DNA of 44,653 nucleotides, from the NCBI GenBank assembly GCA_001771985.1, contig MERG01000361.1, positions 1 to 44,653 of the forward strand, given 5' to 3'. Each line of letters opens with the position of its first letter. Within the stretch, counting starts at the first letter, position 1. Shown here in pieces: positions 10,627-44,653 of the stretch. The notes under the pieces were generated by a model that worked only from the letters and a program-made list of their open reading frames with translations, ran no database searches and had not been told where the DNA came from. Source of the stretch: Betaproteobacteria bacterium RIFCSPLOWO2_12_FULL_62_13 (GTDB lineage: Bacteria > Pseudomonadota > Gammaproteobacteria > Burkholderiales > SG8-41). A program made the position numbers and the translations under genes.

Positions 10627-10635
10627 TTTTCTCGT

Positions 10636-14314: not shown

Positions 14315-14559
14315 GCCGTTTCGCTGCGCGCGCATTCGGTAGTTGCCGACGTGGCGTTCCCCAGGAACTCACAAATTGCAGCTCGATGAAATAAGTGACG
14401 TCGGCTTCCTTTGCCCCTGGCCCCAAATCATCCGCAGGAATCAGGCGCGGAACGCGCGCAACCGGGAATCGGACTTCCCGCTGCGTCAAATAAGAATATG
14501 CATGCACCGGCGTTGCGGCCGATTCTCGCACCACTCCCACCCTTGGTAACCTAGAAAAT

Positions 14560-15120
14560 GCTACCGCAAGAATGCATCACACCTGCGCTCAACTTACATT
14601 AACTGTGCCATTTGAAGGTACTCTTGTCAGGTGGTTAGCTTCCAGGATATTTTCGAGGCATGTTCTGTCGTCTTCTTCTTCAGTTGGCAGCCGACAGCGC
14701 GCCCTAGTTCCTGCCACACGGAAAACCTTCGCGACTTATCCTCTACCTTGGCAATGCCCGTCTCTTTGAGCCCTCGATGCATATCGAGAATCGCTCCCAC
14801 CCCTGCGATGAACCCGCGTGATGAAACAAGACGATCCGAAAGCCCATGGCGGCCAGCTCGTCGACCGGGGTATCGTTAGGGTAGGCGAAACTACCTGAAG
14901 AACTATCGCCTTGTAGAAAACTCCGCGCGCGGTGTATGGGCTGGGGCGAGCGAGGCTCGTACACGCGCCGGCATGGGGGCGGGCAGTACCAAGTAATCGC
15001 GGTTGAGTGGTCTGCGCCACGTCACCGGCGCCCGCGACGAAGACATCGACGCCGTTCACCTTCAGAATCTCGGGAGATTGCGGACCGCCTCTCGCCCCTC
15101 GATCATCACGCAGAAGAGCG
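14560..15120 (-). pseudogene. Frameshifted gene remnant, possibly the C-terminal half of a PEP-mutase/isocitrate-lyase- or HpcH-type lyase
   Basis: Pieces in three frames (PNDTPVDELAAMGFRIVLF; GFIAGVGAILDMHRGLKETGIAKVEDK...) read like a TIM-barrel lyase tail. No intact ORF. The family assignment is weak. Confidence 0.25.
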
Positions 15121-15121
15121 A

Positions 15122-15817
15122 CTATTCCAAGATAATGCGCGCGTCCACTGCGATTGCATTGTCCCATCGAGCAAAGATGGGATTAATGTCCATCTCCTTG
15201 ATCTCGGGCGTTTTGGCGACAAATGCAGAGATCTTGAGCAATATATCCTCCAACGCCTTGATATTGGCCGGCTCCGAACCGCGGTACCCTTCGAGCAGCG
15301 GAAAACTTTTGATTTCTTTTATCATGTCCCTAGCGTCACGTTGGGTTATCGGCACTACGCGGAAAGAAACGTCCTTCAGGAGCTCGACCAGGATGCCGCC
15401 AATGCCAAACATGAGTACCGGACCGAACTGCGGGTCCTTCGACATCCCGATGATCACTTCGACGCCCGGTTTGGCCATGTTCTGCACTGATGCACCATCG
15501 ATCTTGGAACTCGGCTGCTTTGCCTTTGTCACGCCCATAATCTCATCGTATGCCTTGCCCACGGCGGCGGCGTTACCCAGCCCCAACTTCACGCCGCCGA
15601 TGTCACTCTTATGGACAATATCCTGGGAGACTATCTTGAGCACTACGGGAAAGCCGATGTCCCGGGCAAGGGCAATGGCCTCAGCACGGGACGTGGCGAG
15701 GCGTGTATCGCTGGTCGACACGCCGGCCTCTTTGAGCAACTGCTTCGATTCAATTTCGTTGAGGTACTTGCGTCCGCTGTTCTGCGCGTTTTCAATAATG
15801 GTTAACATAGCCGGCAA
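15122..15817 (-). CDS. ADP-forming acyl-CoA synthetase beta-type protein (ATP-grasp_5 domain only)
   Basis: YLNEIESKQLLKEAGVSTSD..., GFPVVLKIVSQDIVHKSDIGGVKLGL and EMDINP are typical of the ACD beta domain. 231 aa. TTG 15817 or ATG 15808 start, preceded by GGGAGG. Confidence 0.8.
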   Translation of the reverse strand: MPAMLTIIENAQNSGRKYLNEIESKQLLKEAGVSTSDTRLATSRAEAIALARDIGFPVVLKIVSQDIVHKSDIGGVKLGLGNAAAVGKAYDEIMGVTKAKQPSSKIDGASVQNMAKPGVEVIIGMSKDPQFGPVLMFGIGGILVELLKDVSFRVVPITQRDARDMIKEIKSFPLLEGYRGSEPANIKALEDILLKISAFVAKTPEIKEMDINPIFARWDNAIAVDARIILE

Positions 15818-17832: not shown

Positions 17833-17909
17833 TGGGGTGGCAGATGGGACTCGAACCCACGACAACCGGAATCACAATCCGGGACTCTACCAGCTGAGCT
17901 ACTGCCACC
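17833..17909 (-). tRNA. tRNA-His (anticodon GTG), with G-1 and encoded CCA
   Basis: Folded by hand. Acceptor G-1 plus GTGGCAG/CTGCCAC, anticodon stem CCGGA/TCCGG with loop TTGTGAT, T-arm GTGGG-TTCGAGT-CCCAT, discriminator C. Confidence 0.93.
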
Positions 17910-18017: not shown

Positions 18018-18094
18018 TGGCGCGCCCGGCGGGACTCGAACCCACAACCCCCGGCTTAGAAGGCCGGTGCTCTATCCGGTTGAGCTACGGGCAC
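18018..18094 (-). tRNA. tRNA-Arg (anticodon TCT), encoded CCA
   Basis: Folded by hand. Acceptor GTGCCCG/CGGGCGC, anticodon stem CCGGC/GCCGG with loop CTTCTAA, T-arm GTGGG-TTCGAGT-CCCGC. Confidence 0.92.
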
Positions 18095-30623: not shown

Positions 30624-30720
30624 CAGAGAAAGAACGCGAAAGGCATAAGAAGCAAAGAATATGGGGTGCTGTTCTGTTCACTCCTTTCTCCTCTCACCTC
30701 TCTCCTCTCGCTCTTTCAAG
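30624..30720. repeat. Purine tract (30624-30660, AGAGAAAGAACGCGAAAGGCATAAGAAGCAAAGAA) followed by 7-nt-periodic pyrimidine tract CACTCCT TTCTCCT CTCACCT CTCTCCT CTCGCTC (30679-30713)
   Basis: Read directly, in the imuB-dnaE2 spacer. Arm complementarity is only partial. Confidence 0.7.
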
Positions 30721-30725
30721 CTCTT

Positions 30726-33700
30726 ATGCTTCCCGCCTACGCGGAACTGCACTGCCTTTCCAACTTCACCTTCCTGCGCGGCGCCTCCCATCCGGAGGAA
30801 CTGGTTCAGCGCGCGCATGAACTGGGCTATAGCGCGCTCGCCATCACCGACGAATGCTCGTTTGCCGGTGCAGTCCGGGCTCACGTCGAGGCCAAGAAGT
30901 ACGGTCTGAAACTCATCATCGGAACCGAAATCAGGCTCGTCGACGGATTGAAGCTCGTGTTGCTCGCCATCGACCGCGAGAGCTACGGTCATCTCTCGGC
31001 GCTCATTACCCGCGGCCGGATGAATGCCTCGAAGGGAAGTTACCGTCTTGCGCGCGCTGATCTCGAACAGAACCTCGACGGCTGCCTCGCCGTCCTCGTT
31101 CCGCCGGCCTTGCCGGCTGCGAATCTCCCCATTCCTACCCTCACTCCTGACCTCTCTCCCAGAGGGAGAGAGGAAGCTCGAGCCTCCCTTCTTCCCCCGG
31201 GAGAAGGGTCGGGGATGAGGGACCGAGAAGGGCCGGGGGTGAGGGAAAATGAGATTCTTCAGCATGCGCGCTTCGTCGCTGAGCGCTTTCCGCATCGTGC
31301 CTGGATCGCCGCCGAGTTCTTGCACGGGCCCAATGATCGAGCCCGGCTCGCCGCGCTGCGCAAGCTGGGTAAAAGCACCGGTCTGCCCCTGGTTGCCGCC
31401 GGCGACGTGCACATGCACGTGCGCTCGCGCAAGGCGCTGCAGGACACGCTGACCGCAATCCGTCTGGGCATGCCGGTGCACGCACTTGGGCATGCGCTTT
31501 ACCCCAACGCCGAACAGCATTTGCGGCTGCGGCTGCGGCTCGCGCAGATTTATCCTCCGGATCTGCTCGCCGAAACTCTGCGCATCGCCGAACGCTGCGA
31601 TTTCTCGCTCGACAGCCTGCGCTACGAATATCCCGACGAGATCGTCCCTGAAGGCCTTACGCCCGCGAACTATCTGCGTAAACTGACCGAACAGGGCCTT
31701 GCCCGGCGTTTTCCGCAGGGTGCGCCCGCCCATGTGCGCAACCTCATCGAACACGAGCTCAAGCTCATTTCGGAACTCGAGTATGAACACTTCTTTCTCA
31801 CTGTGCACGACGTCGTGCAGTTCGCACGGTCCCAAGGCATCCTCTGCCAGGGACGCGGCTCTGCGGCGAATTCGGCGGTGTGTTACTGCCTCGACATCAC
31901 CGAAGTCGATCCCGCCCGCATGAACGTGCTGTTCGAGCGTTTTATCTCGCGCGAGCGAAACGAGCCACCTGACATCGACGTCGATTTTGAGCACCAGCGG
32001 CGCGAGGATGTCATCCAGTATGTGTACAACAAATACGGCCGCGATCGCGCCGCGCTGGCGGCGACCGTGATCACCTACCGTCCACGCAGCGCCTTGCGCG
32101 ATGCCGGCAAGGCGCTCGGGCTGGAACTGGCGCAGGTCGACCGGCTGGCCAAATCGATGATGTGGTGGGACGGCAGGCGGATCATGCCGGAGCGCTTGCA
32201 GCAGGCCGGCGTCGACATCGACAGCCCCGTGATCCAGCGCCTGATGATGCTGGTAAACGACCTTGTCGGTTTCCCGCGCCATCTGTCTCAACATGTCGGC
32301 GGTTTTGTGATTTCCCGGAGTCCCTTGTCGCGCCTCGTGCCGATCGAGAATGCGGCAATGCCGGAACGCAGCGTTATTCAGTGGGACAAGGATGACCTGG
32401 AGGCGCTTGGCTTGCTGAAAGTGGATGTGCTGGCGCTCGGCATGCTGTCGGCAATCCGGCGTGCGCTCGAACTCGTGAATCGCTATCGCGGCGGATCGCT
32501 CACGATGCAGGAGATACTCGATCGGGGGGACGACAGGGCAGTTTTTGAAATGATCCGGAAGGCGGACACCATGGGTGTATTTCAGATCGAGTCGCGCGCC
32601 CAGATGTCGATGCTGCCACGGCTGAAGCCCGAGAAGTTCTACGATCTCGTCGTCGAGGTGGCAATCGTGCGGCCGGGGCCGATCCAAGGGGGCATGGTGC
32701 ATCCCTATCTGCGCCGCCGGCAAGGCTTGGAGGCCGTGACCTATCCCTCCGATGCAGTCAAACAAGTGCTGGAGCGCACCTTGGGCGTGCCGATCTTTCA
32801 GGAGCAGGTCATGCAGTTGGCCATGGCAGCGGCCGGATTCACTCCGGGCGAAGCGGACGGACTGCGGCGCTCGATGGCAGCGTGGCGGCGCAAAGGCGGA
32901 TTGGAGCATTTCCATCCCCGCCTCATCAGCGGTATGCGGAAGCGTGGGTATTCGCAGCAGTTCGCCGAGCAGATCTACCAGCAGATCTGCGGCTTTGGCG
33001 AGTACGGTTTTCCCGAGTCGCATTCCGCGAGCTTCGCCCTGCTTGCCTATGTCTCCTCCTGGCTCAAGTACTATGAACCCGCCGCTTTTCTCGCCGCCAC
33101 GCTCAACAGCCAGCCGCTCGGCTTCTATTCCCCTTCCGAGCTCGTACAGGACGCGCGCCGGCACGGCGTCGAGGTGCGGCCTGTGGACGTCGCCGTGAGC
33201 GACTGGGACTGCATGCTCGAGACCCCCTCGGACGCTCTTGATAGCGATGAAAATGGTTATTTAGAAGCATATAGTCATGAAATAGCCCTCGACACAGACC
33301 GCCAATCACCAATCACTAATCACCAATCACGCCCTTCAACCCCAGCCGTGAGGCTGGGGTTGCGGATGACAAAAGGCCTCACCGAAGCCGGCGCCGAGCG
33401 CATCGTCACTGCGCGCAACGCCGCGCTGTTCGAGGACGTCAAGGATCTCGCACGTCGCGCGCGGCTCGACCGGCACGACCTGCGCAACCTCGCCGCAGCG
33501 GGCGCGCTCGCCGCGCTTTCGGGGCATCGCCACGCGGCACATTGGGCAAACGCCGGCATCGACACCGCACCCGGACTGCTCGAGGATGCGCCGGTCCGCG
33601 AGCCGCTGCCGCAACTCGTCCTGCCAACCGAGGGCGAGAACATCGTCGCCGATTACGCAAGCCTGGGGCTGACGCTCGGGCGCCATCCGCTCGCGCTGCT

Positions 33701-34046
33701 GCGCCGCCGCTTGTCGCGCATGCGGCTCGTCACCGCCGCCGATCTTTCGCGGCTGCCCCACGGCCGGCTCGCGCGCACCGCCGGCATCGTCACCTGCCGC
33801 CAGCGTCCAGGCACGGCGAAAGGCGTGGTGTTCGTCACCTTGGAGGATGAAACGGGGTACACCAATGTCGTCGTATGGAACAAGCTGGTGGAAAAACAGC
33901 GGCGCGAGCTGCTCCATTCAAGCCTGCTCGGCGTAGAAGGCGAGATTCAGCGCGAGGGTGAGGTCGTGCACCTTGTCGCCCATCGTCTTGTCGATCACAG
34001 CCGGTTGCTCGGCAGACTGGTCACGGAGTCGAGGGATTTTCACTGA
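30726..34046 (+). CDS. dnaE2: Error-prone DNA polymerase III alpha-like subunit DnaE2 (ImuC)
   Basis: MLPAYAELHCLSNFTFLRGASHPEELV (PHP domain), polymerase core, an HhH region and an OB-fold C-terminus (GVVFVTLEDETGYTNVVVW). Internal ATG 30726 of ORF 30666..34046. Contains two repeat-derived in-frame segments. Confidence 0.95.
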   Translation: MLPAYAELHCLSNFTFLRGASHPEELVQRAHELGYSALAITDECSFAGAVRAHVEAKKYGLKLIIGTEIRLVDGLKLVLLAIDRESYGHLSALITRGRMNASKGSYRLARADLEQNLDGCLAVLVPPALPAANLPIPTLTPDLSPRGREEARASLLPPGEGSGMRDREGPGVRENEILQHARFVAERFPHRAWIAAEFLHGPNDRARLAALRKLGKSTGLPLVAAGDVHMHVRSRKALQDTLTAIRLGMPVHALGHALYPNAEQHLRLRLRLAQIYPPDLLAETLRIAERCDFSLDSLRYEYPDEIVPEGLTPANYLRKLTEQGLARRFPQGAPAHVRNLIEHELKLISELEYEHFFLTVHDVVQFARSQGILCQGRGSAANSAVCYCLDITEVDPARMNVLFERFISRERNEPPDIDVDFEHQRREDVIQYVYNKYGRDRAALAATVITYRPRSALRDAGKALGLELAQVDRLAKSMMWWDGRRIMPERLQQAGVDIDSPVIQRLMMLVNDLVGFPRHLSQHVGGFVISRSPLSRLVPIENAAMPERSVIQWDKDDLEALGLLKVDVLALGMLSAIRRALELVNRYRGGSLTMQEILDRGDDRAVFEMIRKADTMGVFQIESRAQMSMLPRLKPEKFYDLVVEVAIVRPGPIQGGMVHPYLRRRQGLEAVTYPSDAVKQVLERTLGVPIFQEQVMQLAMAAAGFTPGEADGLRRSMAAWRRKGGLEHFHPRLISGMRKRGYSQQFAEQIYQQICGFGEYGFPESHSASFALLAYVSSWLKYYEPAAFLAATLNSQPLGFYSPSELVQDARRHGVEVRPVDVAVSDWDCMLETPSDALDSDENGYLEAYSHEIALDTDRQSPITNHQSRPSTPAVRLGLRMTKGLTEAGAERIVTARNAALFEDVKDLARRARLDRHDLRNLAAAGALAALSGHRHAAHWANAGIDTAPGLLEDAPVREPLPQLVLPTEGENIVADYASLGLTLGRHPLALLRRRLSRMRLVTAADLSRLPHGRLARTAGIVTCRQRPGTAKGVVFVTLEDETGYTNVVVWNKLVEKQRRELLHSSLLGVEGEIQREGEVVHLVAHRLVDHSRLLGRLVTESRDFH
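31138..31245. repeat. 108-bp REP-like palindrome cluster inside dnaE2: CCTCTCTCCC-aga-GGGAGAGAGG (31151-31173), CCCTTCT..AGAAGGG, and GGGTCGGGGATGAGGG / GGGCCGGGGGTGAGGG
   Basis: Read directly. It translates as TLTPDLSPRGREEARASLLPPGEGSGMRDREGPGVRE. The length is a multiple of 3. Confidence 0.8.
33238..33362. repeat. Composite module inside dnaE2: AT-rich purine-biased arm (33238-33287), (CAATCAC)2 TAATCAC CAATCAC (33303-33330), then a perfect 11-bp hairpin CAACCCCAGCC-gtga-GGCTGGGGTTG (33337-33362)
   Basis: Read directly. It translates in frame as DSDENGYLEAYSHEIALDTDRQSPITNHQSRPSTPAVRLG. Confidence 0.85.
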
Positions 34047-34049
34047 ATG

Positions 34050-34081
34050 AAAAAGCCCAGCGTTGCCAGGCTGGGCTTTTT
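34050..34081 (+). terminator. Rho-independent terminator after dnaE2 (A-run/T-run flanked, potentially bidirectional)
   Basis: AAAAGCCCAGC-gttgccag-GCTGGGCTTTT, a perfect 11-bp stem starting 5 nt after the dnaE2 stop. Confidence 0.85.
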
Positions 34082-34134
34082 CATAACATGGGCGCCCTGT
34101 GACGGAAAACAATCAGGGCGCGATACAAGAACTC

Positions 34135-34200
34135 AAGCCCCAACCGGTTGCCGGGCGGGGCTTTTCTGCTGAACGGTGCGTGACGATGTCCTGCTTTGCC
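34135..34200 (-). other. Diverged partial copy of the 5S rRNA 3' end (~25 nt) plus the rrn terminator hairpin
   Basis: Colinear with 44144-44212. Perfect 12-mers CGGGCGGGGCTT and TGACGATGTCCT are separated by 17 nt in both copies, with flanking AAGCCCCA, GGTGC and CTTT matches. Confidence 0.75.
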
Positions 34201-34542
34201 TTCGGCCGCCGTTAACGCGGCTCAACTTTTCGCTCGGCCGCGGCGAAAAGTTGGCCTACGCCGCAATCGGACGTGAGACGAACAAGCGAGTTTGACGGCC
34301 CATTGACGTCGCGAAAGTAGGAGATCGCTTTCGGCGCAGCCGGGGTGCGGGAAAGTGCTTGCCTCGCTCTGGCGGTTGGAATAGATTGCACGGTAATTGA
34401 CCAATAATCCCGCTCAAGACCCACTCAGCTCGCGGTCATCTCCCGGGGAGGAGGAAGCAAGAATGAGCATAAAGCCCATCATGCGCGAGTTGATCTCAAA
34501 CAGCGATTTGTAAACTCCTTCGCACGATGGCAGGGGAGAGAA

Positions 34543-35376
34543 ATGCTCATCACCGACGCACAAGTCCATATTTGGCGCGCCAACTCGCCCGAGCGTCCGT
34601 GGCGAGCCGGAGAGAAATCACATCGAGAACCGCCGCTCGAGGCAGATGAACTGTTGCATGAAATGGACGCTGCGGGAGTGAACCGCGCGATACTCGTGCC
34701 GCCGTTCCTGGATGGCGATCGCAACGATCTCGTGCTGGAGGCGGCGCGAGCGCATCCCGACCGTTTTGCGGCCATGGGCCGGGTTGATCTTGACGACCCC
34801 GCTTCCCGCAGGCTGATTCCGACATGGCGTCAGCAACCCGGAATGCTGGGCTTTCGCTATTCGTTCCACCGGCCGGCGCTGACGCCCGCGCTTACCGAGG
34901 GGCGCGTGGACTGGTTATGGGAAGGCGCAGAGAAAGCAGGCGTGCCAATCATGTTACATGTGCCGCATTCGATGGTGCACCTGATTGACCGCGCCGCTGA
35001 CCGTTATCCGGGACTGAAGCTCGTGATGGACCATCTCTCGCTTCCCATGGGCAAGAAGGATGAAGAAGCCTTCCGTGATCTGGACAAGCTGCTGGCGCTC
35101 GCCACGCGGCCCAATGTTGCGGTAAAGGTAAGTGCGCTGGCGTGCTACACGAACGACCCCTACCCTTATCGGAAACTACATCCGTACGTCCGGCGTGTCT
35201 TCGACGAATTCGGGCCCAGACGCACATTCTGGGGCAGTGACCTGTCGCGACTGTCTTGCACATACCGTGCCAGCGTCATGATGTTCACCGAAGAAATGCG
35301 GTGGTTTTCCGCCGACAACCTGGAATGGATCATGGGCCGTGGCTTAAGCCAGTGGCTGGACTGGAAACCGTACTGA
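34543..35376 (+). CDS. Amidohydrolase_2 (PF04909-like) family metal-dependent hydrolase
   Basis: ITDAQVHIW...GVNRAILVPP...HPDRF...MDHLSLP...FWGSDLS follows the LigI/ACMSD-type amidohydrolase pattern. GGGGAGAG RBS upstream. Confidence 0.75.
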   Translation: MLITDAQVHIWRANSPERPWRAGEKSHREPPLEADELLHEMDAAGVNRAILVPPFLDGDRNDLVLEAARAHPDRFAAMGRVDLDDPASRRLIPTWRQQPGMLGFRYSFHRPALTPALTEGRVDWLWEGAEKAGVPIMLHVPHSMVHLIDRAADRYPGLKLVMDHLSLPMGKKDEEAFRDLDKLLALATRPNVAVKVSALACYTNDPYPYRKLHPYVRRVFDEFGPRRTFWGSDLSRLSCTYRASVMMFTEEMRWFSADNLEWIMGRGLSQWLDWKPY

Positions 35377-35694
35377 AAGTCGTTTTATATAACCCCTTAG
35401 CCCGGTCTGGGCTTCAAGCTGAATCGTGAGGCGTTGAAGGACTCGCTTGTCAAAGCGTGATTGCTCTGCGGATTTTACTATCGACGCCACTATAAACCTC
35501 AGTAGTTCACGGGAAGGAGGAGTCCTGATAGCGATTCTTTAGCCTGACGTGAGGTAGCCTGTGATAGGTTTGCTTGATCTGCCGATTTGTGTCCAATGTT
35601 TGAGCGAAAGCCTATCCGAACTATGCCGTTGGAAATGGCTAGAACTTGACCCTTGGGTGGTCCGGCTCTAACATCTTATAGAGGGAACAAGAAC

Positions 35695-35957
35695 GGTTCT
35701 GGTGCAAGAACATCAGGGGAGTTGGGAGTATAGACTGATCGGGTTCGTCCCCGGAGCCGGTCATGACATCCTTGAGCCGCCTCAACACCGTGTTCAAGTA
35801 TCTGCACTTCGACCGCGAGATCATTATCCTCTGCGTTCGATGGTACGTAAGCTACAAGCTGAGCTGTCGGGATCTGGTCGAGATGATGGCCGAGCGCGGG
35901 GTTGAGCTTGCTCACACTGCGGTGCTCGGCCGGGTGCAACGATTCATAAGTGAGGAA
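35695..35957 (+). mobile_element. IS6-family remnant: terminal inverted repeat GGTTCTGGTGCAAGAAC (35695-35711) plus the first ~65 codons of the transposase (35763 onward)
   Basis: The IR resembles the IS6/IS257 GGTTCTGTTGCAAAG ends. The translation MTSLSRLNTVFKYLHFDREIIILCVRWYVSYKLSCRDLVEMMAERGVELAHTAV matches the IS26-like N-terminus. Confidence 0.7.
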
Positions 35958-35960
35958 TCA

Positions 35961-36902
35961 ATGGGCGACAAAGAGCTGACGGTGTTCTGCATGACCCCCA
36001 GCCCGTACCGCGAGGACGGCTTACTCGACGAGGAAGCGTTGCGCGTCCACCTGCGGCGCCTGGTAGCTGCCCGCACGGGACTCTTCCTCTGCAGCGGCGG
36101 TGCCGGCGAAGCTCACGTGCTCACACCCAAGGAGATGGGGCGGATCTACAAAGTCGGCGTCGAGGAGGCGAAAGGCAAGGTCCCCGTCTACGCCGGCCTG
36201 CGGGAGTCTCGGAGCGCGGCCGCGATGTACGAGGTCGCCAAGGAAGCGATCGACGCCGGTGTGGACGCCGTGCAGATTTATCAGCTCGACAATGGCCACG
36301 GGATGATCCCCAACGCGCGCGAGCAGGAGGCGTACTGGCGTGAGCTGCTTGACGAGATCCACATCCCGGTGGCCATCTCGATCCACTACGACGCGAAGTT
36401 CAGGGCGAGCACGCGACTGCTCCAGGACCTCGTCGCCCGCTACAAGCAGATCTGCGCGTTCAACCTCGTCGGCTCGCAGGTGGCGTACTTCCTCGAGTTG
36501 CGCGAAGCGATTCCGGAATCGATCAAGTTCTACTGTGGCGTCCCCGAGTTCGTCCAGTACGCGACGCTTGGCGCAGCGGGCTACATCAACCCGGCGGGCA
36601 ATATCATCCCCTACGTGTGCCGCAGACTCGTGGACGCATGGATGGCCGGCGACCTCCAGCAGGTTTCGCAGAGCAACTGCACCATTCAGCGCTTTCTCAG
36701 GATCGTCAACCAGTGGGCGCCGTCGACAGCGAGGTGGGTGAAGATGGGTATGAAGGTAAAGGGACTGGGCAACGGCGTCCTTCGCCTTCCTTATCTCCTG
36801 CCACCCGAGGAAGAGCTACGCAAGATGGCAGTCCAATTCGCCGCTCTGCGGATCGACGAGATGGAAGCCCAAGCCGCCGCGTATGTGCGCGGGCACGCCT
36901 GA
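35961..36902 (+). CDS. DapA/NAL-family (dihydrodipicolinate synthase-like) class I aldolase
   Basis: 313 aa from ATG 35961 (GAGGA 5 nt upstream), with DEEALRVHLRRLV and a TIM-barrel DHDPS-like pattern. It is in frame with the IS6 remnant in tracked ORF 35763..36902. The family call is moderate. Confidence 0.65.
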   Translation: MGDKELTVFCMTPSPYREDGLLDEEALRVHLRRLVAARTGLFLCSGGAGEAHVLTPKEMGRIYKVGVEEAKGKVPVYAGLRESRSAAAMYEVAKEAIDAGVDAVQIYQLDNGHGMIPNAREQEAYWRELLDEIHIPVAISIHYDAKFRASTRLLQDLVARYKQICAFNLVGSQVAYFLELREAIPESIKFYCGVPEFVQYATLGAAGYINPAGNIIPYVCRRLVDAWMAGDLQQVSQSNCTIQRFLRIVNQWAPSTARWVKMGMKVKGLGNGVLRLPYLLPPEEELRKMAVQFAALRIDEMEAQAAAYVRGHA

Positions 36903-37012
36903 GCCGGGCACTCGATCGAACAAGGCGGAGGTGTTGAAATGCACCGAATTCTGTTTCGGGATGCGCAGCGAATCTTGACCCACCCCTTTGTGAATCAGAA
37001 AGGAGGCTTAAC

Positions 37013-37972
37013 TTGAAAAAGCTTGTTCTCTCTCTCGTGATTGCTAGCGCGACTCAACTTGCACTCGCTCAGGAGTTTCCCAACAAACCGATACGCATCA
37101 TCGTGCCGTTCAGCCCCGGCAGTACGCTGGACATCCTCCCTCGCCTCCTTGCGCCCCACCTGAACCAGGCATTGGGACAGCCGGTAATAATTGAAAATCG
37201 CGCCGGCGCCGCCGGCGCGATCGGCACGCAAGCCGGCGCCAAAGCGACCCCGGACGGCTACACGCTTCTGATGTCGGCCGTGGGACCACAAGTCCACACC
37301 CCGATCCTCTACCCCAAAACGCCATATCATCCGGTCGAGGACTTTGCGGCAGTCTGCCAGGTCGCCACCGGACCACTGTCGATCGTCGTGCGGCCGTCGC
37401 TGCCGGTGCATAACCTAAAGGAACTGGTGGCGTTCGCCAAGAAACAACCCGGAAAGCTCAATTTCGGCTCAAGCGGCGTGGGCAGCGTCAACCACCTTCT
37501 CGGTGAGATGGTCAATCTCTACGCCGGCACCAAGATCGTGCATGTGCCGTACAAAGGCAATGCGGACGCGATCTCCAATCTGCTCGGAGGAGAGGTGGCG
37601 ATGGTCATGACGGGCGTCCCGGCAGTGATTCCGCACGCCAAAGCCGGAAAACTTCGCGTGGTTGTCATCACCGGCCGCAAGCGCATACCGAGCATGCCCG
37701 AGGTGCAGACGATGGCGGAGGCCGGTCTTCCGGAAGCCGAAATCGTGATCTGGTACGGCTTGGTTGCGCCGGCAGCGACGCCCAAGAAAATCATCGACCG
37801 GCTTAACCGCGAGGTCGTGAAGGTAATGAGTAGGCCGGATATACGCGCGTTGTTTTCCAAGCAGGGTGTCGATCCGGAGCCGGATTCCCCCGAAGAATTC
37901 GCGAAGATCATCCGCGACGACTATGCGCGCTGGACCAAGGTCATCCATGCGACAGGACTCAAGTTCGATTAA
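37013..37972 (+). CDS. Bug/TctC-family tripartite tricarboxylate transporter substrate-binding protein
   Basis: Signal peptide, then FPNKPIRIIVPFSPGSTLDILPR...PDGYTLL...VHVPYKGNADA. TTG start with AAAGGAGG RBS. Confidence 0.88.
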   Translation: MKKLVLSLVIASATQLALAQEFPNKPIRIIVPFSPGSTLDILPRLLAPHLNQALGQPVIIENRAGAAGAIGTQAGAKATPDGYTLLMSAVGPQVHTPILYPKTPYHPVEDFAAVCQVATGPLSIVVRPSLPVHNLKELVAFAKKQPGKLNFGSSGVGSVNHLLGEMVNLYAGTKIVHVPYKGNADAISNLLGGEVAMVMTGVPAVIPHAKAGKLRVVVITGRKRIPSMPEVQTMAEAGLPEAEIVIWYGLVAPAATPKKIIDRLNREVVKVMSRPDIRALFSKQGVDPEPDSPEEFAKIIRDDYARWTKVIHATGLKFD

Positions 37973-38028
37973 GCCCGTCTGAGTAGCTACGATTTTCCTA
38001 TTTGCTATTTACTTGAGGAGAAGTCCAG

Positions 38029-38937
38029 ATGGCTGGCCAGCGGCCTGAGCCGAGCTTCTTCGACCTCGGCATGAACGCCAAGTGGGACCAGGATCGGTTC
38101 TCGCCCGAGGAGAAAGCCGCCTTCGAGGTTTGGTACAACCAATTCCACGGGACCGGCGACCTGAAGCTTGTCCCGTTCGTTCCCTTCCTCATGGAGCACC
38201 TCCCCAGGCAGTTCAAGGATTACCGACGGTGGTTCACGTTCATCGAGGAGTCACGGGATGGGGTTGCCCTGCCGTTCGGCGTGTCGGTGCTGCTCTTCCT
38301 CCACCTCTATGCGGTGATCGCGAACGAGAGGGGCATCCTCTACGAGATCCTCGCCGCTCGCCGCCTGGGGATGTCAAAGGCCGTGGTCATGGACACATTT
38401 GCCTACGCGTTTCTCAGCGGAGGGCCGGCCAGCATCAACGCCGTCGCCACCCTCAGCGACGAGTACCTTAGGTCGTGGCCGGACGACGCCCCGTCTACGT
38501 ACGAGTGGCCGGCGGACTGGGTGCCAAACCCCGCCGCTTTCCGCTCAGGCATGGACCTCTCGACAACCGAGTTGAGTGCCGCCGACGTCGCCGCGATCAA
38601 GGCCTGGCAGACGGCGGCGCACGGCGCGCCTCCGCGACACGTCGATCTCTGGGCGAAGCTGCATCCAGCCGCGTACAAGGCGCAGCGGATTCGCTACGAG
38701 CGCGCGCTCGGAAGCGCTTTGCCGGCCCAACTCGCGCCGCTCTACACGCTCAACGTTGCGACGGTTCGCTTGCAGCGCGACCTGATGAGAAGCTCGGTCC
38801 TTCACGCGATGCAGCTCGGAGTGAAGCGACACCAAGTGGTCCAAACGCTCTACTGGGCCTTCTTCTACGGGGGCGATTTGGTAATGGAGGCAGCCGGCGA
38901 CGCGGTGGGCGATCTGCTCGAAGCTTGGCCGAGCTGA
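38029..38937 (+). CDS. Hypothetical protein, possibly a tandem AhpD/carboxymuconolactone-decarboxylase-like helical fold (no CxxC)
   Basis: 302 aa. GAGGAGAAG RBS, 56 nt after the Bug gene. Two internally similar helical halves (..ERGILYEILAARRLGMSKAVVMDTFAYAF.. and ..RDLMRSSVLHAMQLGVKRHQVVQTLYWAF..). The fold assignment rests on pattern resemblance only. Confidence 0.5.
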   Translation: MAGQRPEPSFFDLGMNAKWDQDRFSPEEKAAFEVWYNQFHGTGDLKLVPFVPFLMEHLPRQFKDYRRWFTFIEESRDGVALPFGVSVLLFLHLYAVIANERGILYEILAARRLGMSKAVVMDTFAYAFLSGGPASINAVATLSDEYLRSWPDDAPSTYEWPADWVPNPAAFRSGMDLSTTELSAADVAAIKAWQTAAHGAPPRHVDLWAKLHPAAYKAQRIRYERALGSALPAQLAPLYTLNVATVRLQRDLMRSSVLHAMQLGVKRHQVVQTLYWAFFYGGDLVMEAAGDAVGDLLEAWPS

Positions 38938-39073
38938 CTCGGCGGGCCGGTCTACGAGCACCACGTTCGCTACATCGGCGGGTACTCGGACCGAGCACGC
39001 GGCGCACAACATCTTTGTCGATTTCCACGCCGGGAATCAAACTCGACTGAGCCGGTTGATGAATGGCGGCGCT

Positions 39074-40534
39074 TTACCTCACGCTATCCGATTGCCGCTT
39101 ATCGAGCAGCCGTTTCACCTTTGAGACCTGCGACACGCCGGTGTATTGATCGAGGTCGCCGCGTTGAACCGGCTTGACCGCGAGCTTCACTGCAAGCGCC
39201 TCATGCAGGCGGCGCTCGAGATCCTTTTGAAAAACGCCCGGATCGACGGAACATCCGGCCACCTCCACCATCACGGTCATTTCATCGTGGCCGGCTTCGC
39301 CGGAACGTTCGACAATGCAGAAATACTCGCCCGTGGATCGAGCGTCCTCCGCGATCAGCGCCCCTATGGCTTCCGGGAAGACGTTCACGCCGCGCAACTT
39401 CACCATGTTGTCGCTGCGGCCGAATATTCTCTCGAGGCGAGCGAGGGTGCTGCCGCACTCGCAGGCGCCAGGCATGATCGCGGAGACGTCGTTAATGTTG
39501 TAACGCACGAGCGGCGCGCTGTACTTGTAAAGAGACGTGACGCAGATATTGCCTTTTTCGCCTTGTGGCATCGGTTTCCCCGTTTCCGGATCCAGGATTT
39601 CCACGATGAAGGCGTCTTCCTGGACGTGCATTCCGTTCCGGTAAGCGCAGTCGGCCGCGATCATTCCCGATTCGTGCGCTCCGTAAAAGTCGTGGCACGG
39701 AGCACCCCACAGCTCTTCTATCGCACCGCGGTCCTCCATGCCAAGGTTGGAGTCGAGCGACCGGATACCGAGGCTGCGCGGGTCGATCTTGAGCTCGTCG
39801 CGCGCCACGATCGCCATGTGGCGCAGATAAGCAGGAAATCCGACGATGACGTTGACGCCCCAGGCGCGCGCGATCTCGATCTGCCTGCGCGTCGGAGTGA
39901 CGTTTCCGCTGCCGGTCATGACCGGAACCGCGCCGGTGTATTTCCAGAGCGCCTCGCGCACGTGAAAACCGCCGTTGGCCAATCCCAGCGACCGGGTCAC
40001 CTGAACGAGGTCGCCGGGACGAACGCCGTGCATCGTCAGGCGGCGCGCCCCGAGAATGGCCATGACTTCCCGGTCCTGCGGGGCGTAGAGCATTGGGCGC
40101 GGCAGGCCTGTCGTGCCTCCGCTCGTCTGTATGACGAGAGGGATGCGCCGCCCGTCTGCCGGCGAAACGCCCATGAAATCGCCGAACGGCGGGCTGCGCG
40201 CGATGCTGTCGCGGATATCGAGCACGGTGTAAGGCGGAATCTTGGTCAGATCGCCGATGCCCCGGATGTCCCCGGGCTCGAGGCCGGCCGCGCGCCAGCG
40301 GCGCTGGTAGAAGGGAACCTCCCACGCCCGGGCAATCTGCGACCGGAATCTGTTTTCCTGCAGATTTCGCAACCGCGGGCGCGGCATGCGGTAAACAGTA
40401 TTGAAGAACGCCGGCGGAGGCGGGTACTCCCCCATAAGCTTCTGGAAGTCCAGCGACTGCCAGTAATACGGCGGCCTCTCCCTGCTCATTCTCGCGATTT
40501 CTGCAGCAGCGGCCATGCGGCTTCTCGAGTTCAA
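39074..40534 (-). CDS. Phenylacetate-CoA ligase (PaaK)/coenzyme F390 synthetase-like adenylate-forming enzyme
   Basis: IQTSGGTTGLPRPM (P-loop-like AMP motif), YGAHESG and RSDNMVKLRGVNVFP are characteristic of the PaaK family. TTG 40534 overlaps the SDR stop; ATG 40516 is an alternative. Confidence 0.8.
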   Translation of the reverse strand: MNSRSRMAAAAEIARMSRERPPYYWQSLDFQKLMGEYPPPPAFFNTVYRMPRPRLRNLQENRFRSQIARAWEVPFYQRRWRAAGLEPGDIRGIGDLTKIPPYTVLDIRDSIARSPPFGDFMGVSPADGRRIPLVIQTSGGTTGLPRPMLYAPQDREVMAILGARRLTMHGVRPGDLVQVTRSLGLANGGFHVREALWKYTGAVPVMTGSGNVTPTRRQIEIARAWGVNVIVGFPAYLRHMAIVARDELKIDPRSLGIRSLDSNLGMEDRGAIEELWGAPCHDFYGAHESGMIAADCAYRNGMHVQEDAFIVEILDPETGKPMPQGEKGNICVTSLYKYSAPLVRYNINDVSAIMPGACECGSTLARLERIFGRSDNMVKLRGVNVFPEAIGALIAEDARSTGEYFCIVERSGEAGHDEMTVMVEVAGCSVDPGVFQKDLERRLHEALAVKLAVKPVQRGDLDQYTGVSQVSKVKRLLDKRQSDSVR

Positions 40535-41322
40535 TACACGCTCCGCAATAATCCACCATCAACCTGGATCGCGGCGCCGGTGATGAAGGATCCCCGCACG
40601 GACACCAGCAGCGCCACCAATCCCGCCACGTCTTCCGGCTTCCCAAGCCGCCGCAGCGGAACCTCATGCAGCAGCTCCTGCATCATCTTGTCAGCGTCCT
40701 CACCCTGCTGTTCCGCGCGTTTTCGCGTCACCAGTGCCAGCCGCCCGGTATCGATGCGCCCGGGGCATATCGTGTTGACCGTAATTCCGAAAGGGCCCAG
40801 CTCCAACGACAGTGTCTTTGCGTAACCCAGCACACCCGCCCAGGTCGCAACCGACAGACCCAGTCCCGCCAGCGGTTGCCGTGCCGACACCGCAGCGATG
40901 TTGATGATGCTCCCGCCGCCCGCAGCTTTCATGTGGGGCACGGTCTGCCGGACCATGCGGATGACGCTGTAGAGATTCTGTTCTACCGCTTTCTGCCAGG
41001 CGACATCGTCGAATTCTTCGATCGCGCCGAGCGGCGGCGCGCCGTCGTTGTTCACCAGGACATCTATGCGGCCAAAGACTTTGACCGTGTTTTCCACCAC
41101 CCGGACACAATCCTCGGCGCGCCTTACATCCGCTGCGACGGCGAGCACGCGCGAGCCTGTTTCCGCGCGGACCACTTCGGCGGCTGCGTTGAGCGGCGCC
41201 TCGCGCCGTGCTGTCATGACGATCCTCGCGCCTTCTTCGGCCAGTGTGCGGGCGACCGCGCAGCCTATTCCCTGGCTCGCGCCGTTCACGATTGCGACCT
41301 TATCAAGCAAATGCAGGTCCAC
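40531..41322 (-). CDS. Short-chain dehydrogenase/reductase (SDR)
   Basis: VAIVNGASQGIG cofactor motif, NNDG, and a C-terminal ITGAAIQVDGG. GTG start with AGGAGA RBS. Confidence 0.88.
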   Translation of the reverse strand: MDLHLLDKVAIVNGASQGIGCAVARTLAEEGARIVMTARREAPLNAAAEVVRAETGSRVLAVAADVRRAEDCVRVVENTVKVFGRIDVLVNNDGAPPLGAIEEFDDVAWQKAVEQNLYSVIRMVRQTVPHMKAAGGGSIINIAAVSARQPLAGLGLSVATWAGVLGYAKTLSLELGPFGITVNTICPGRIDTGRLALVTRKRAEQQGEDADKMMQELLHEVPLRRLGKPEDVAGLVALLVSVRGSFITGAAIQVDGGLLRSVY

Positions 41323-41390
41323 GCTGTCTCCTGGCGGCCTGTCGGACCCCGGATCAAGTCCGGGGCAAGCTTAACAACCTGAACAGGCCG

Positions 41391-42269
41391 CTAAAATTTG
41401 ATGCTCGCGAAGAACGCCTCGGCGTTCTTGTAGAAAACTTTCTCAAGTATCTCCTGACTGTAGTCTTCGGCGTCCCAATCCGCAAAGAGCCGCTCGTACG
41501 TGAAAAGCGGGTAATCGGCGCCGAACATCACCCGGTCTTTCAGGCGGCGGGAAATCTCTTTCTTGAGACTCTCGGTGTAGAACCTGGGCGACCATCCATG
41601 AAGCTCGTACCACACGTTGGGTTTGTGCAGCAGCACGGCGATCATTTCATCCTGCCAGGGCCACGCCGGCCTCCCGGCGATGATCTTGAGATCGGGATAC
41701 CTGGCGGCGACATCGTCGACATGCCGTGGATGGCAATGGTCCAGCCGCACGCCGCTGCCACCGGGGAGGCCGGCGCCCGTACCGGTAAATCCGACCAAGA
41801 TGAGTGCCGGAATTCCCGCCTCTTGGCAAAATCCGTAGAACGGATCGAACGCGGGATCGCTCGCGGGAACGCCAACCGAGCCGCCGGAGACTATGAATCC
41901 GATGAAACCCGAGTTCGCGGCGAGACACCGTTCCACCTCGGCAACCCCGGCGCTTCCGCTCCTGGGATCGATGTTCATCCAGTTGCCGAAGATCACGTCC
42001 CGGTATTTTCTCTGGGTTTCCAGCGCATAGTCATGAAACTCCCTCACCTTCTCGATGCGAAGGGACTTGGTGAACCCGAGATCGAGTATCGTCTTCGCGC
42101 GATGCTTCCGGAAGTACTCCGCCATTTCCTGCTCGGTGACGTAGCTCGCGGCGGATTTCCAGACTTGCGGTTGTTGCGCCTTCTCGGCGTCCGTGCGCAG
42201 ACGGTAACCCTTTTCTGTTCCCCAGTGCGAATGCAGGTCGAAGACCCGCATCTTGGTCCAGTCGATCAT
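41391..42269 (-). CDS. Amidohydrolase_2 family protein
   Basis: VFDLHSHWG, HCHPRHVDDVAARYPDLKIIAGRPAWPW and MFGADYP follow the PF04909-like pattern. Confidence 0.75.
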   Translation of the reverse strand: MIDWTKMRVFDLHSHWGTEKGYRLRTDAEKAQQPQVWKSAASYVTEQEMAEYFRKHRAKTILDLGFTKSLRIEKVREFHDYALETQRKYRDVIFGNWMNIDPRSGSAGVAEVERCLAANSGFIGFIVSGGSVGVPASDPAFDPFYGFCQEAGIPALILVGFTGTGAGLPGGSGVRLDHCHPRHVDDVAARYPDLKIIAGRPAWPWQDEMIAVLLHKPNVWYELHGWSPRFYTESLKKEISRRLKDRVMFGADYPLFTYERLFADWDAEDYSQEILEKVFYKNAEAFFASIKF

Positions 42270-42397
42270 GTCGGAGAGCTTTCCAAGGATAACGGCCTAA
42301 TGCAAAACCGGCGTCAGGGAATTGCAGGAGAAAATGATATTATATATTTACCTCAGTTTTCTTCACGTCCGACCGGTTACCAGGGAGAAAATTCACG

Positions 42398-43390
42398 ATG
42401 AACACGGTACACGCCGCCGCAGCGGCGCTCTTCTTGATGTTTTCTGGTGCGGCGGGCCATGCGCTCGGCCAAAGCCCCGCCGGCAAGAGTGCGGCTTATC
42501 CGAACAAGCCGCTTCGTTTCGTCGTCGGCTATCCGGCAGGCGGCGCCACCGACATCATCGCCCGTCTTGTCGCGCAGAAACTTACCGGGAGCCTCGGCCA
42601 GCAGGTGCTGGTCGACAATCGGCCCGGCGCGGGTGGCATTATCGGGTCGGACATCGTCGCCAAGGCCACGCCTGACGGCTATACCATTGTTCTTGTTACC
42701 ACCTCGCATGGCGTGAACCCGAGTTTGTACCGCAGGCTGCCGTACGATACGGCAAAGGATTTTGCGCCGATTACTCAGGTCGCTTCGCTGCAATTGGTGC
42801 TGGTGGTGAATCCGTCGCTGCCTGTGCGATCCGTGAAGGAGCTGATCGCTCTGGCGAAAGCGAAGCCCGGCCAGCTCAACTACGGATCTTCCGGCAGCGG
42901 CCAGTCGCTGCACCTTGCGGCAGAGCTTTTCAAGACGTTGGCCGGGGTTGACATCGTGCATGTTCCGTACAAAGGCGCTGCTCCCGCGCGAACCGACTTG
43001 CTCGCCGGGCAGGTGCAGATGATGTTCGAGTCGATGATCGGTGTTTTGCCCGTCGTCAAAAGCGGAAGATTGAGGGCACTCGCGGTGAGCGGCGCGCGGC
43101 GCTCTCCTGCAACGCCTGATATACCCACGATGGCGGAAGCCGGCGTTCCGGGCTACGAGGCGAGCGGATGGGTTGGGATATTGGCGCCAGCCGGGACACC
43201 CAAGGCCATCGTCACCCGGCTTAACCGCGAAGTCGTGAACGTCCTGAACAGGGCGGATGTTAGAGAGCTTTTTGCGAATCGTGGCGCAGAACCGGTCGGC
43301 AGCACACCCGAGCAATTCGGCGACTTCACCAAAGCGCAATTTGCGAAATGGGCCAAGGTCGTCAAGGCCTCCGGCGCTCGCATCGACTGA
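42398..43390 (+). CDS. Bug/TctC-family substrate-binding protein
   Basis: Signal peptide, YPNKPLRFVVGYPAGGATDIIAR...PDGYTIVL...VHVPYKGAAPA. Confidence 0.9.
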   Translation: MNTVHAAAAALFLMFSGAAGHALGQSPAGKSAAYPNKPLRFVVGYPAGGATDIIARLVAQKLTGSLGQQVLVDNRPGAGGIIGSDIVAKATPDGYTIVLVTTSHGVNPSLYRRLPYDTAKDFAPITQVASLQLVLVVNPSLPVRSVKELIALAKAKPGQLNYGSSGSGQSLHLAAELFKTLAGVDIVHVPYKGAAPARTDLLAGQVQMMFESMIGVLPVVKSGRLRALAVSGARRSPATPDIPTMAEAGVPGYEASGWVGILAPAGTPKAIVTRLNREVVNVLNRADVRELFANRGAEPVGSTPEQFGDFTKAQFAKWAKVVKASGARID

Positions 43391-43394
43391 TGTA

Positions 43395-43964
43395 GATTCT
43401 CAAGTGGGGTGAGTACCCGGCGTGAACTGGTCGGGGTCGACGTCGCGCCGGCATGAAGCGCAACTTCCAGCTCGCCGGTTTCTCCATGCGCAAGGACGCG
43501 TCGCGTCTCGGGATCGGTCACGCGGATCCGCGCGTCCGGCGAGATCGGAAAGCCGCCCGCCTCAAGGCAGCGGTCCGGCGACAGATCTGGTGAAGAACTT
43601 CAGTAAAGCCGATTCCGCGGAAGGACGGCCAGAAAATAAGCGCCTTGGCCTCTGCACGCCCCAGGGTGTCGGAGAGCTCGGAACTGCGGAAACGCGTATT
43701 TACCGCGAGCACGATCGCGCCAAGCTGCGCGCACGCGAACAACGAGACGACCCACAGCGGAATATTTGGCAGCCAAATCGCGACGCGATCTCCCCGGCCG
43801 ATCCCCAGTTCGCTCAACGCCTGCGCCATAGATCGGCTCAGTCGCAGAAGCTCGGAGAAGCTGAACCGGCCTTGGCTGGAAATGAGGGCCGTATGATGAG
43901 GTTGGTGGCCGGCAGCAGCTTCAAGCAGGCGCGTCAAGGTCGCGCTATTTGTCGCGTTACTCAT
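43395..43964 (-). pseudogene. AMP-dependent synthetase/ligase with a large internal deletion and frameshift
   Basis: The N-terminal ~120 aa look normal (GDRVAIWLPNIPLWVVSLFACAQLGAIVLAVNTRF). The reading then jumps to a late-domain piece in another frame (PISPDARIRVTDPETRRVLAHGETGELEV) and is lost near the Bug stop. Confidence 0.6.
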
Positions 43965-44135
43965 CGTTCGGATTCACCTTGCCGGGGGACAAATTCACGC
44001 CGCGGCATCGCACGCGATTTGGGCATCGGCAATGATCTTCGCTCCATCGTCCCTTTTCCCCGGTGGCTATCTCAAACTCCCCCACCTGTGGCCGGGTCAA
44101 ACTCCTCGGCTACCCACAAATTCTGCGGTACTGCC

Positions 44136-44170
44136 CAAAAACAAAAGCCCCACCCAAATCGGGCGGGGCT
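44136..44170 (-). terminator. rrn operon rho-independent terminator
   Basis: Minus-strand RNA AGCCCCGCCC-gauuu-GGGUGGGGCU followed by UUUUGUUUUU. Confidence 0.85.
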
Positions 44171-44184
44171 TCTGTTTTTATGGG

Positions 44185-44301
44185 TGCCTGACGATGTCCT
44201 ACTTTCGCGCGGGCAATCCGCACTATCATCGGCGCAAAAGCGTTTCACGGTCCTGTTCGGAATGGGAAGGCGTGGTTCCACCTCGCTATGGTCGTCAGAC
44301 A
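44185..44301 (-). rRNA. rrf: 5S ribosomal RNA
   Basis: The reverse complement reads UGUCUGACGACCAUAGCGAGGUGGAACCACGCCUUCCCAUUCCGAACAGGACCGUGAAACGC...GAAAGUAGGACAUCGUCAGGCA. Helix I pairing and the CCGAAC/GUGAAAC loops are conserved. The ends are accurate to within about 2 nt. Confidence 0.93.
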
Positions 44302-44443: not shown

Positions 44444-44653
44444 AGGTTATAGGATCAAGCCGCACGGGCAATTAGTACCGGTTAGCTTAAGACATTACTG
44501 CCCTTCCACATCCGGCCTATCAACGTGGTGGTCTTCCACGACCCTTCAGGGGGATCGAGTCCCCGGGAAGTCTCATCTTGAGGCGAGTTTCCCGCTTAGA
44601 TGCTTTCAGCGGTTATCTCTTCCGCACTTAGCTACCCGGCGCTGCCACTGGCG
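44444..44653 (-). rRNA. rrl: 23S ribosomal RNA, 3'-terminal ~210 nt (continues beyond the window)
   Basis: The reverse complement contains GATAACCGCTGAAAGCATCTAAGCGGGAAAC... and ...GCTAACCGGTACTAATTGCCCGTGCGGCTTGATCCTATAACCTT. These match the conserved 23S 3' domain as recalled from E. coli. Confidence 0.9.

Follow-up and report, generated by a model that had tools for sequence, protein, structure and literature searches.

The window, by which we mean the whole stretch of DNA that was analyzed, comprises 44,653 nt of contig MERG01000361.1 (assembly GCA_001771985.1, Betaproteobacteria bacterium RIFCSPLOWO2_12_FULL_62_13). Its dnaE2 gene closes a lexA-imuA-imuB-dnaE2 cluster, with an upstream gene order common to all relatives, and is followed by a terminator hairpin of its own; about 10 kb further on lies the convergent 3' end of an rRNA operon (rrn), with the 23S gene running off the window (Table 1). 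Since Rfam places both the 5S and the 23S rRNA on the minus strand, the plus-strand sequence at 44143-44179 is the rrn terminator, here called T, and that at 44183-44205, here called A, is antisense to the final 23 nt of the 5S rRNA. Counterparts of both, T' and A', are found next to dnaE2, where they form the edge of a folded element of about 200 nt that we call X. A lineage-specific block of 9.8 kb, made up of catabolic and transport genes and tiled by nine ORFs, occupies the interval from X to T.

Table 1. Features of the dnaE2-rrn interval in the window (plus-strand coordinates)
Feature	Position	Strand	Remarks
dnaE2 (error-prone DNA polymerase)	30666..34046	+	homologues 74-83% identity; PHP/DNA_pol3_alpha domains
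dnaE2 own terminator hairpin (AAAAAGCCCAGCG..GCTGGGCTTTTT)	34048..34082 / 34044-34084	+	terminator-like hairpin in scan
T', hairpin copy of rrn terminator, left edge of X	34135..34165		colinear with T at 44143-44179
A', copy of last 23 nt of 5S (antisense on plus strand)	34175..34197		21/23 identical to true end
P2 hairpin of X core	34208-34221		alignments A5, A7
P3 hairpin of X core	34222-34254		alignments A5, A7
Conserved single strand of X core, P3-P4 interval			CCTACGCCG / AGCCTACGCCGCAAC
P4 hairpin of X core	34264-34305		alignments A5, A7; whole core 34208..34305
S, arm complementary to A', sense-like copy of 5S 3' end (CGCGAAAGTAGGAGATCG)	34310..34327		last conserved part of X
9.8-kb lineage-specific block	34328..44135		nine ORFs tile block
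amidohydrolase_2	34543-35376	+
IS6 transposase N-terminal remnant fused to DHDPS-like lyase ORF	35763-36902	+
TctC	37013-37972	+
302-aa protein without family match	38029-38937	+
PaaK-like CoA ligase	39074-40534	-
SDR	40531-41322	-
amidohydrolase_2	41391-42269	-
TctC	42398-43390	+
acyl-CoA synthetase N-terminal fragment, 148 residues	43518-43964	-
T, rrn terminator hairpin, A/T tracts both sides	44143..44179	-	aligns with L129 and L138 terminators
5S rRNA gene, intact	44186..44299	-	Rfam RF00001, 76.7 bits
23S rRNA 3' end, runs off window	44451..44653	-	Rfam RF02541, 169 bits

The original prediction for this DNA described positions 34135-34200 as colinear with 44144-44212 in the same orientation, the two copies sharing perfect 12-mers set apart by an equal 17-nt gap and the left one holding the last ~25 nt of the 5S rRNA some 55 nt past the dnaE2 terminator. 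This description was accurate. When 34135-34197 is aligned to 44144-44205 on the same strand, 48 of 63 columns are identical, with one 2-nt gap and a gapless core of 46 nt at 80% identity. Both 12-mers are exact, occur in the window at these two places only and are spaced by 17 nt in either copy. The 5S-derived part measures 23 nt, and the left copy begins 50 nt past the dnaE2 terminator hairpin. The T' hairpin (AAGCCCC..GGGGCTT) is followed on the plus strand by TTTTCTGCTG; neither T' nor T is called by a simple terminator scan. Terminator stems are low in information, and CGGGCGGGGCTT, when at most 1 mismatch is allowed, reaches 3 matches in 4 of 100 shuffles, which is what could be said for a chance or convergent similarity of GC-rich terminator hairpins. 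Nevertheless, we give that explanation almost no credence: none of 100 shuffles gives 3 matches to TGACGATGTCCT, two exact 12-mers share an identical spacing, the local score of the joint alignment is 50, where the background over the rest of the window on both strands does not exceed 25 (the sole exception being the palindromic hairpin aligned to its own reverse complement, at 31), and the orthologous copies in other genomes L129, L138 and L127 match the 5S end of their own genome at 23 of 23 positions. In addition, the 17-mer TGCCGGGCGGGGCTTTT is found unchanged in T' and in the L129 rrn terminator.

The closest DnaE2 homologues (identities in Table 1) all come from uncultured betaproteobacterial assemblies. 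Ten orthologous loci, denoted here by L numbers, were recovered, with the common order pnp-rpsO-truB-rbfA-infB-nusA-rimP / lexA-imuA-imuB-dnaE2. In nine of these (L001, L072, L134, L135, L127, L129, L138, L070 and L002), dnaE2 is followed downstream by the 5S/23S end of a convergent rrn operon, which agrees with the ancestral arrangement that had been proposed. The distance from dnaE2 to rrn is ~100 nt in L001, L072 and L134, ~270 nt in L135, 1.5 kb in L129, 2.5 kb in L127, 4.9 kb in L002, 5.8 kb in L070 and 6.7 kb in L138. The DnaE2 tree is made up of two clades, (L135,(L129,((L001,L127),window))) and (L130,(L070,L138)). Contigs of the same species (99.5-99.9% identity) from 3-4 independent metagenome samples carry left and right junctions identical to those of the window. 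Gene content is also variable between dnaE2 and X in the relatives, where cupin, TRAP and Tct genes were seen.

The same pair of 5S-end copies as in the window occurs without any island in four relatives drawn from both clades (L129, L138, L070 and L127). In L129, L138 and L070, a gene is followed by X, only 15-20 nt separate X from T-5S, and A' lies 232-248 nt from the true 5S end with no island between. In L127, X is likewise beside the rrn terminator, except that an IS66-family element has inserted into the loop of P4, leaving an 8-bp target duplication (TGAGTGTC). The second 5S-end copy of L070 is only 232 nt from the true one, and the interval between the two is homologous to the window over ~180 nt, well beyond the 66 nt of the original observation. 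On the plus strand, this homologous element reads T', a 17-nt spacer, A', the junction GGCTCCGGCCGG, the hairpins P2, P3 and P4, and the arm S. Its closing helix, P1, has A' as the 5' strand and S as the 3' strand; a further hairpin, P5, is nested inside P4 in the relatives and is missing from the window's X. The element is 157-189 nt long with four or five helices. The junction GGCTCCGGCCGG follows A' in most copies, and the 5S homology of A' stops at the same base in every copy. T' is well kept in the window only; L138 has a decayed counterpart of it upstream of A', which is called as a plus-strand terminator before X.

The position of X bears directly on how the block arrived. Homology of the window to the relatives' X-T-5S sequence breaks off directly past S, at 34326-34329, and picks up again at 44136, in the A-tract that opens T, from which it follows that the block was inserted in the short spacer between X and the terminator. 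Consequently, ~130 nt of conserved X (P2-P4 and S) separate the left copy from the block, and the repeats do not bracket it, contrary to what had been proposed. We consider it probable that the left copy is the edge of an old, conserved X and that the block was inserted later. Judging by the relatives, the repeats pre-date the block and are not a product of its insertion. The ancestral order would have been dnaE2 ... T'-A'-core-S, a 15-20-nt spacer and T-A(5S)-23S, and it would make X the distal neighbour of the rrn terminator; in the window's lineage, the 9.8-kb block would have entered the spacer between S and T and pushed the old copies 10 kb apart.

The original prediction instead took the two copies as the attL and attR of an island integrated site-specifically into the 5S 3' end and terminator, with the integrase later lost; in such a scheme, the left copy would be the displaced original end and the right copy would have been supplied by the island. 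Several of its component claims are sound. The copies do repeat the 3' end of a stable-RNA gene directly and in one orientation, dnaE2 and rrn were adjacent in the ancestor, and the block is indeed accessory, being lineage-specific and absent at this locus from all relatives, in which it retrieves only paralogous matches to its TctC receptors. The predicted IS6 remnant is present at 35763-35935 and consists of the first 51 residues (profile positions 1-51 of 202), and the predicted deleted AMP-ligase pseudogene is the acyl-CoA synthetase N-terminal fragment; the presence of an IS remnant and of truncated genes in the block speaks for an island. It had also been noted that no integrase survives, and Pfam and NCBIfam scans of the nine block ORFs detected no integrase or recombinase domain; since the largest non-coding gap in the block is 386 nt, too small to hide a recombinase, the want of even an integrase remnant counts against this origin. 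Composition, which had been proposed for comparison with the flanks, is native: the block has a GC content of 0.608, a tetranucleotide correlation of r = 0.93 (0.90-0.94 in same-size controls) and a GC3 of 0.69-0.83, like the flanking genes, which implies that the block is old or came from the same or a similar genome. Moreover, genomes free of the block do not show one clean, empty target. They have either both copies within 232-248 nt of each other or pieces of X (L001, L072, L134 and L135). Taken with the island-free pairs in both clades and the stretch of X that parts the left copy from the block, these points make site-specific integration into the 5S gene very improbable.

As to how the block was in fact acquired, no repeats were found at the block ends. 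An IS6/IS26-type composite transposon was considered and rejected, as there is one internal N-terminal remnant only, with no boundary IS6 and no 8-bp duplications. The IS6 remnant and the two truncated genes point away from an integrase and toward recombination that was illegitimate or assisted by a transposon. We would like to note that insertion precisely into the 15-20-nt spacer beside S is also what is expected from a site-directed event at X. The conspecific contig L069 diverges from the window within the block, at ~36.9 kb.

The arrangement in the window is similar to that of islands at tRNA and tmRNA 3' ends, where a tyrosine integrase duplicates the attachment site, in that a stable-RNA 3' end is directly repeated with one copy displaced and a lineage-specific block lies between the repeats. 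In contrast to those islands, the repeat here exists without an island in the relatives and there is no integrase, the displaced copy is off the block boundary, the target would be the 5S gene and its terminator, and the DNA between the copies in the relatives is a conserved, covarying structure, not an island remnant. Searches of the literature for 5S-targeted integration or for partial bacterial 5S copies retrieved nothing relevant. An island in 5S rRNA would have been a new integration target; what is seen here is the coincidence of an older repeat with a later insertion, and a duplicate of a stable-RNA 3' end is by itself insufficient evidence for an attachment site.

We also asked whether X corresponds to a known RNA. 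RF00001 has no match at E values up to 10 in positions 33900-34700 of the window or 13230-13520 of L129, whereas the true 5S genes score 75-84 bits with that model. Rfam 15 at permissive thresholds yielded terminator-type chance matches only for the X of the window and of L129, and ARAGORN detected no tRNA or tmRNA in the X loci. Four further candidates were dropped. A group II intron 5' end, suggested by GUGCG after the terminator, was rejected because the motif is the 5S end and Rfam gives no intron domain match; an integron attC site, suggested by RYYYAAC/GTTRRRY-like boxes flanking P3, was rejected for too short a hairpin and an ill-fitting 3' box; resemblance to a dif/Xer site was not apparent on reading the sequence; and, also by reading, small ORFs (frames of the MSYFGSGRR type) are not conserved and are broken in L070.

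The original prediction had itself named a remnant of a second rrn operon as an outcome that would speak against it. With respect to the origin of the left copy, that outcome comes closer to the truth, but X is not a recognisable 5S gene now. A reading of X as a functionless, decaying tandem second 5S or second rrn 3'-end remnant (5S-T-5S'-T') can draw on the colinearity of A'-17 nt-T' with A-17 nt-T, on the start of X just after T and on the ends of X, which on the minus strand pair like helix I of 5S. As a present identity, we judge it improbable, given the silence of the Rfam 5S model, a length and a helix count that do not make a 5S three-way junction, and a degree of conservation, with compensatory changes, that exceeds that of the 23S-5S spacer and is unlike a pseudogene. 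As an origin, it is plausible and compatible with our preferred explanation of an old X and a later block. Extra distal 5S genes occur in some rrn operons, such as the 5S-tRNA-5S arrangement of E. coli rrnD. X resembles that case as a tandem duplication of the 3'-terminal part of rrn, which might be where A'-T' came from, and differs from it in not being a 5S by Rfam, in being longer and in its helix plan. The rrn operons of E. coli also have tandem terminators (rrnB T1-T2), and the 9S precursor there comprises the 5S end, a spacer and a terminator hairpin. The loci studied here are alike in having a second terminator-like hairpin ~200 nt beyond the first, with the module repeated, but the second unit here repeats 23 nt of the 5S itself, and the interval is filled by a conserved structure of several helices, which A' closes by pairing with its complement.

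The four X copies adjacent to rrn are 68-81% identical in nucleotide sequence, compared with 53-67% for their 23S-5S spacers, a comparison sequence that is itself transcribed and partly constrained. Window X is only 59-69% identical to the other copies, though its host is near L127 and L129, and apart from lacking P5 it has mismatches in P1 and P4. It thus appears, from these sequence differences, that window X has been decaying since its separation from the rrn terminator, which fits relaxed constraint. Pairing was scored over five intact X copies, all of them from metagenome assemblies of one clade (a four-sequence version was also run). At the 45 proposed pairs, 90.7% of the 225 cells are paired, against 29-49% when the partners are slid by 1-3 columns, with helix values of 96% for P2, 100% for P3 and 96% for P4. 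Eight of the 45 pairs are altered on both sides in a compensatory manner. The covariation score is 0.220 against 0.100 in shuffled alignments and is reached by 0 of 500 shuffles, as is the observed value for 4 of 5 measures, although these statistics are optimistic since the structure was derived from the same five sequences. Within this set, the helices of X are maintained by compensatory changes beyond the controls, as is generally asked of a structured RNA; the evidence from these five copies for X as a functional RNA is suggestive but thin. Compensatory changes favour a folded nucleic acid over a protein-binding scar.

A covariance model, R1, built from window X and L070 X, retrieved matches at the orthologous place in L129 (108 bits), L138 (106 bits) and L127 (57 bits), and a weak one of 16 bits in L130, L131 and L132. 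R1 found X nowhere else in ~1.7 Mb of fetched loci, and its single-copy status is known for the dnaE2-linked rrn only. Loci in which dnaE2 and rrn are nearly adjacent retain part of X as well. In L001, L072 and L134, the 3' part of X directly follows the dnaE2 stop codon; this remnant, AAATCTCGGCGTGTTGTCGTGCC, is identical to positions 150-172 of the L129 X at 19 of 23 nt. Against the L129 X, the score of the L001 remnant is reached by 0 of 300 shuffles and those of the L072 and L134 remnants have p values of 0.003-0.007, and against the L138 X, 0 of 300 shuffles reach the score for all three. A weak remnant of A'-P2 is left in L135 (p about 0.02), and the sole part that L002 has in common with L138 is the pre-terminator spacer. 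With intact copies in both DnaE2 clades and remnants in apparently empty genomes, X is, as far as these sequences tell, ancestral to the clade. Several lineages have a truncated X, so it is dispensable.

Two loci depart from the common order. In L130, the junction is permuted to S-T''-A'-P2, with a toxin-antitoxin pair (RHH/ParE) and IS fragments after it, and L127 carries the A' module three times in tandem. Such forms raise the question of whether X is the terminal module of an old element that integrated at the 5S 3' end through a folded attachment site of the CTX-phi type. Its layout would run from the direct copy A' through a structured loop to the inverted copy S, and on through the cargo to the direct copy A; the relatives would be relics without cargo. 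The cargo of the window does sit exactly between S and T-A, A' and S form a duplex copy of the target sequence, the L130 junction is as it would be in a circular or tandem form with other cargo behind it, and the tandem modules of L127 would be in keeping with this too. We still regard such an element as decidedly improbable, less so than integration of the block itself. X is confined to one orthologous locus and follows the phylogeny of its hosts, no recombinase was seen beside any X copy, and the copies without cargo are the best conserved, with covarying P2-P4 that would be unexpected in a dead scar. The genes on the other side of X vary as well, which marks the interval as plastic, and both the permuted and the tandem forms would result if the direct repeats A' and A crossed over unequally. 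Searches for mobile carriers gave no relevant match to the junction or core of X: in a plasmid collection queried in near and distant modes (with the window junction, window X and L138 X), the IS6 remnant was the sole match, and viral contigs had 0 matches to the A' junction and two to the X core motif, which are not X according to R1 and are at chance level for 18 specified bases.

In CTX-phi-type attachment sites (IMEX), a folded hairpin mimics the target. X is similar in that inverted copies of the target, ~110-140 nt apart, can be folded into a duplex copy of it, and the window has the corresponding topology of direct copy, loop, inverted copy, cargo and direct copy. X differs in that no dif-like site is apparent on reading, there are no phage genes, the locus is single and orthologous, inheritance is vertical, and the loop is structured and covarying.

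If X is an old resident of the rrn flank, it would most likely have originated when the 3' end of rrn, with the 5S end and the terminator, was partly duplicated in tandem. That X is a structured RNA or a transcript-end structure at the meeting point of dnaE2-side and rrn transcription is, on the present sequence comparisons, a proposition that we hold in even balance. We are less ready to believe that it is an undescribed functional RNA with a role in processing the 5S 3' end, in terminating transcription at the rrn boundary or in setting the availability of 5S, which we would call doubtful. Equally tentative is the notion that such an RNA would bear a perfect 23-nt copy of the 5S 3' end (if read from the minus strand) or the antisense to it (if read from the plus strand), masked in the closing helix. 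Orphan structured RNAs and 3'-UTR sRNAs are the nearest comparison. Like them, X has helices with compensatory changes and no coding potential, and in L129, L070 and L127 it lies between a stop codon and an intrinsic terminator, as 3'-UTR sRNAs do. Unlike orphan structured RNAs, X bears a perfect rRNA-end copy or antisense, and it is known from sequence alone; we know of no rRNA-end copy or antisense in described structured RNA motifs. X, which is outside Rfam, has lasted across a clade in which intergenic DNA cannot otherwise be aligned. Were its RNA to act on 5S maturation or on convergent termination, it would represent a new kind of rrn-linked regulator or insulator; if X is not such an RNA, the locus documents how an rrn 3' flank evolves through partial duplication, IS insertions and the insertion of a block.

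The strand from which X would be read can be approached from several sides. A plus-strand version would be a 3'-UTR-type RNA with a masked 23-nt antisense to the 5S 3' end, ending at a bidirectional T, and a minus-strand version would be a trailer of rrn, with the module of 5S 3' end, spacer and terminator repeated at its end. The colinearity of A'-spacer-T' with A-spacer-T is sensible in the rrn direction (minus strand) only. A simple promoter scan found no promoter-like sites near X. In L129, L070 and L127, there is no terminator between the upstream plus-strand gene and X, and a plus-strand transcript must therefore cross X to reach T. The alifold energies are near equal, at -60.9 for the plus and -60.0 for the minus strand, and the wobble pairs, among them a U-G that is invariant at the base of P3, only lean toward the plus strand, by 12 G-T to 5 A-C.

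The 9.8-kb lineage-specific insertion between the conserved element X and the rrn terminator (the block; window 34328-44135) was compared with a metagenome contig of the same species, L069, which matches the window at 98.6% identity as far as window 36896. Past that point, L069 (3973-5332) carries a TctC gene at only 87% identity, followed by unrelated sequence. This divergence between the two sequences indicates that the block is polymorphic within the species. The block's own two TctC genes are paralogues, matching each other at 37696-37877 and 43114-43295 with 71% identity over 112 nt, and several relatives (L070, L132, and L133) also have TctC-family genes between dnaE2 and rrn. At window 35763-35935, an in-frame fusion places residues 1-51 of an IS6-family transposase at the start of a DHDPS-like ORF; this stretch has 85% nucleotide identity to an IS6 of a Paraburkholderia plasmid, and a low-GC, AT-rich non-coding gap (35377-35700) lies upstream of it. 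An N-terminal fragment of an acyl-CoA synthetase (43518-43964, minus strand; profile positions 5-135 of 540) adjoins the right boundary of the block, its 3' side missing.

Directly upstream of X, which spans about 200 nt, three lineages representing both DnaE2 clades carry a bicupin gene. This gene is possibly a long-standing neighbour of X, lost from the window and from the related locus L127. In L127, an IS66-family element (13415-15623) sits inside the loop of the P4 hairpin of X, with inverted repeats beginning GTAAGCGTCCGGTGACGG and an 8-bp target duplication, TGAGTGTC. The same locus has three tandem copies (13204-13322) of the A' module, here the copy of the 5S end plus GGCTCCGGCCGG, separated by spacers of about 13 nt, and the first copy is degenerate.

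A permuted form of the X junction was found in L130 (13360-13458) and is the same in L131 and L132, in the order S-like arm (S being complementary to A'), terminator-like hairpin, truncated A', and then the P2 hairpin. Beyond it lie an RHH/ParE toxin-antitoxin pair and fragments of IS21 and IS66, and no rrn is present within 10 kb of the junction.

Elsewhere in the window, positions 9001-12000 have its lowest GC content (0.55-0.57) and correlate least with the remaining window in tetranucleotide usage (r = 0.70), and may be a foreign segment. Two tRNA genes are also listed below.

Coordinates of genes in the window and in related dnaE2 loci
Feature	Sequence	Coordinates	Strand	Position
Bicupin gene	L129	12175-13263		upstream of X
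Bicupin gene	L070	15708-16820		upstream of X
Bicupin gene	L138	8200-9315		upstream of X
tnpC, IS66-family element	L127	13465-14979		
tnpB, IS66-family element	L127	15065-15358		
tRNA-His (gtg)	window	17833-17908	-	upstream of pnp
tRNA-Arg (tct)	window	18018-18094	-	upstream of pnp
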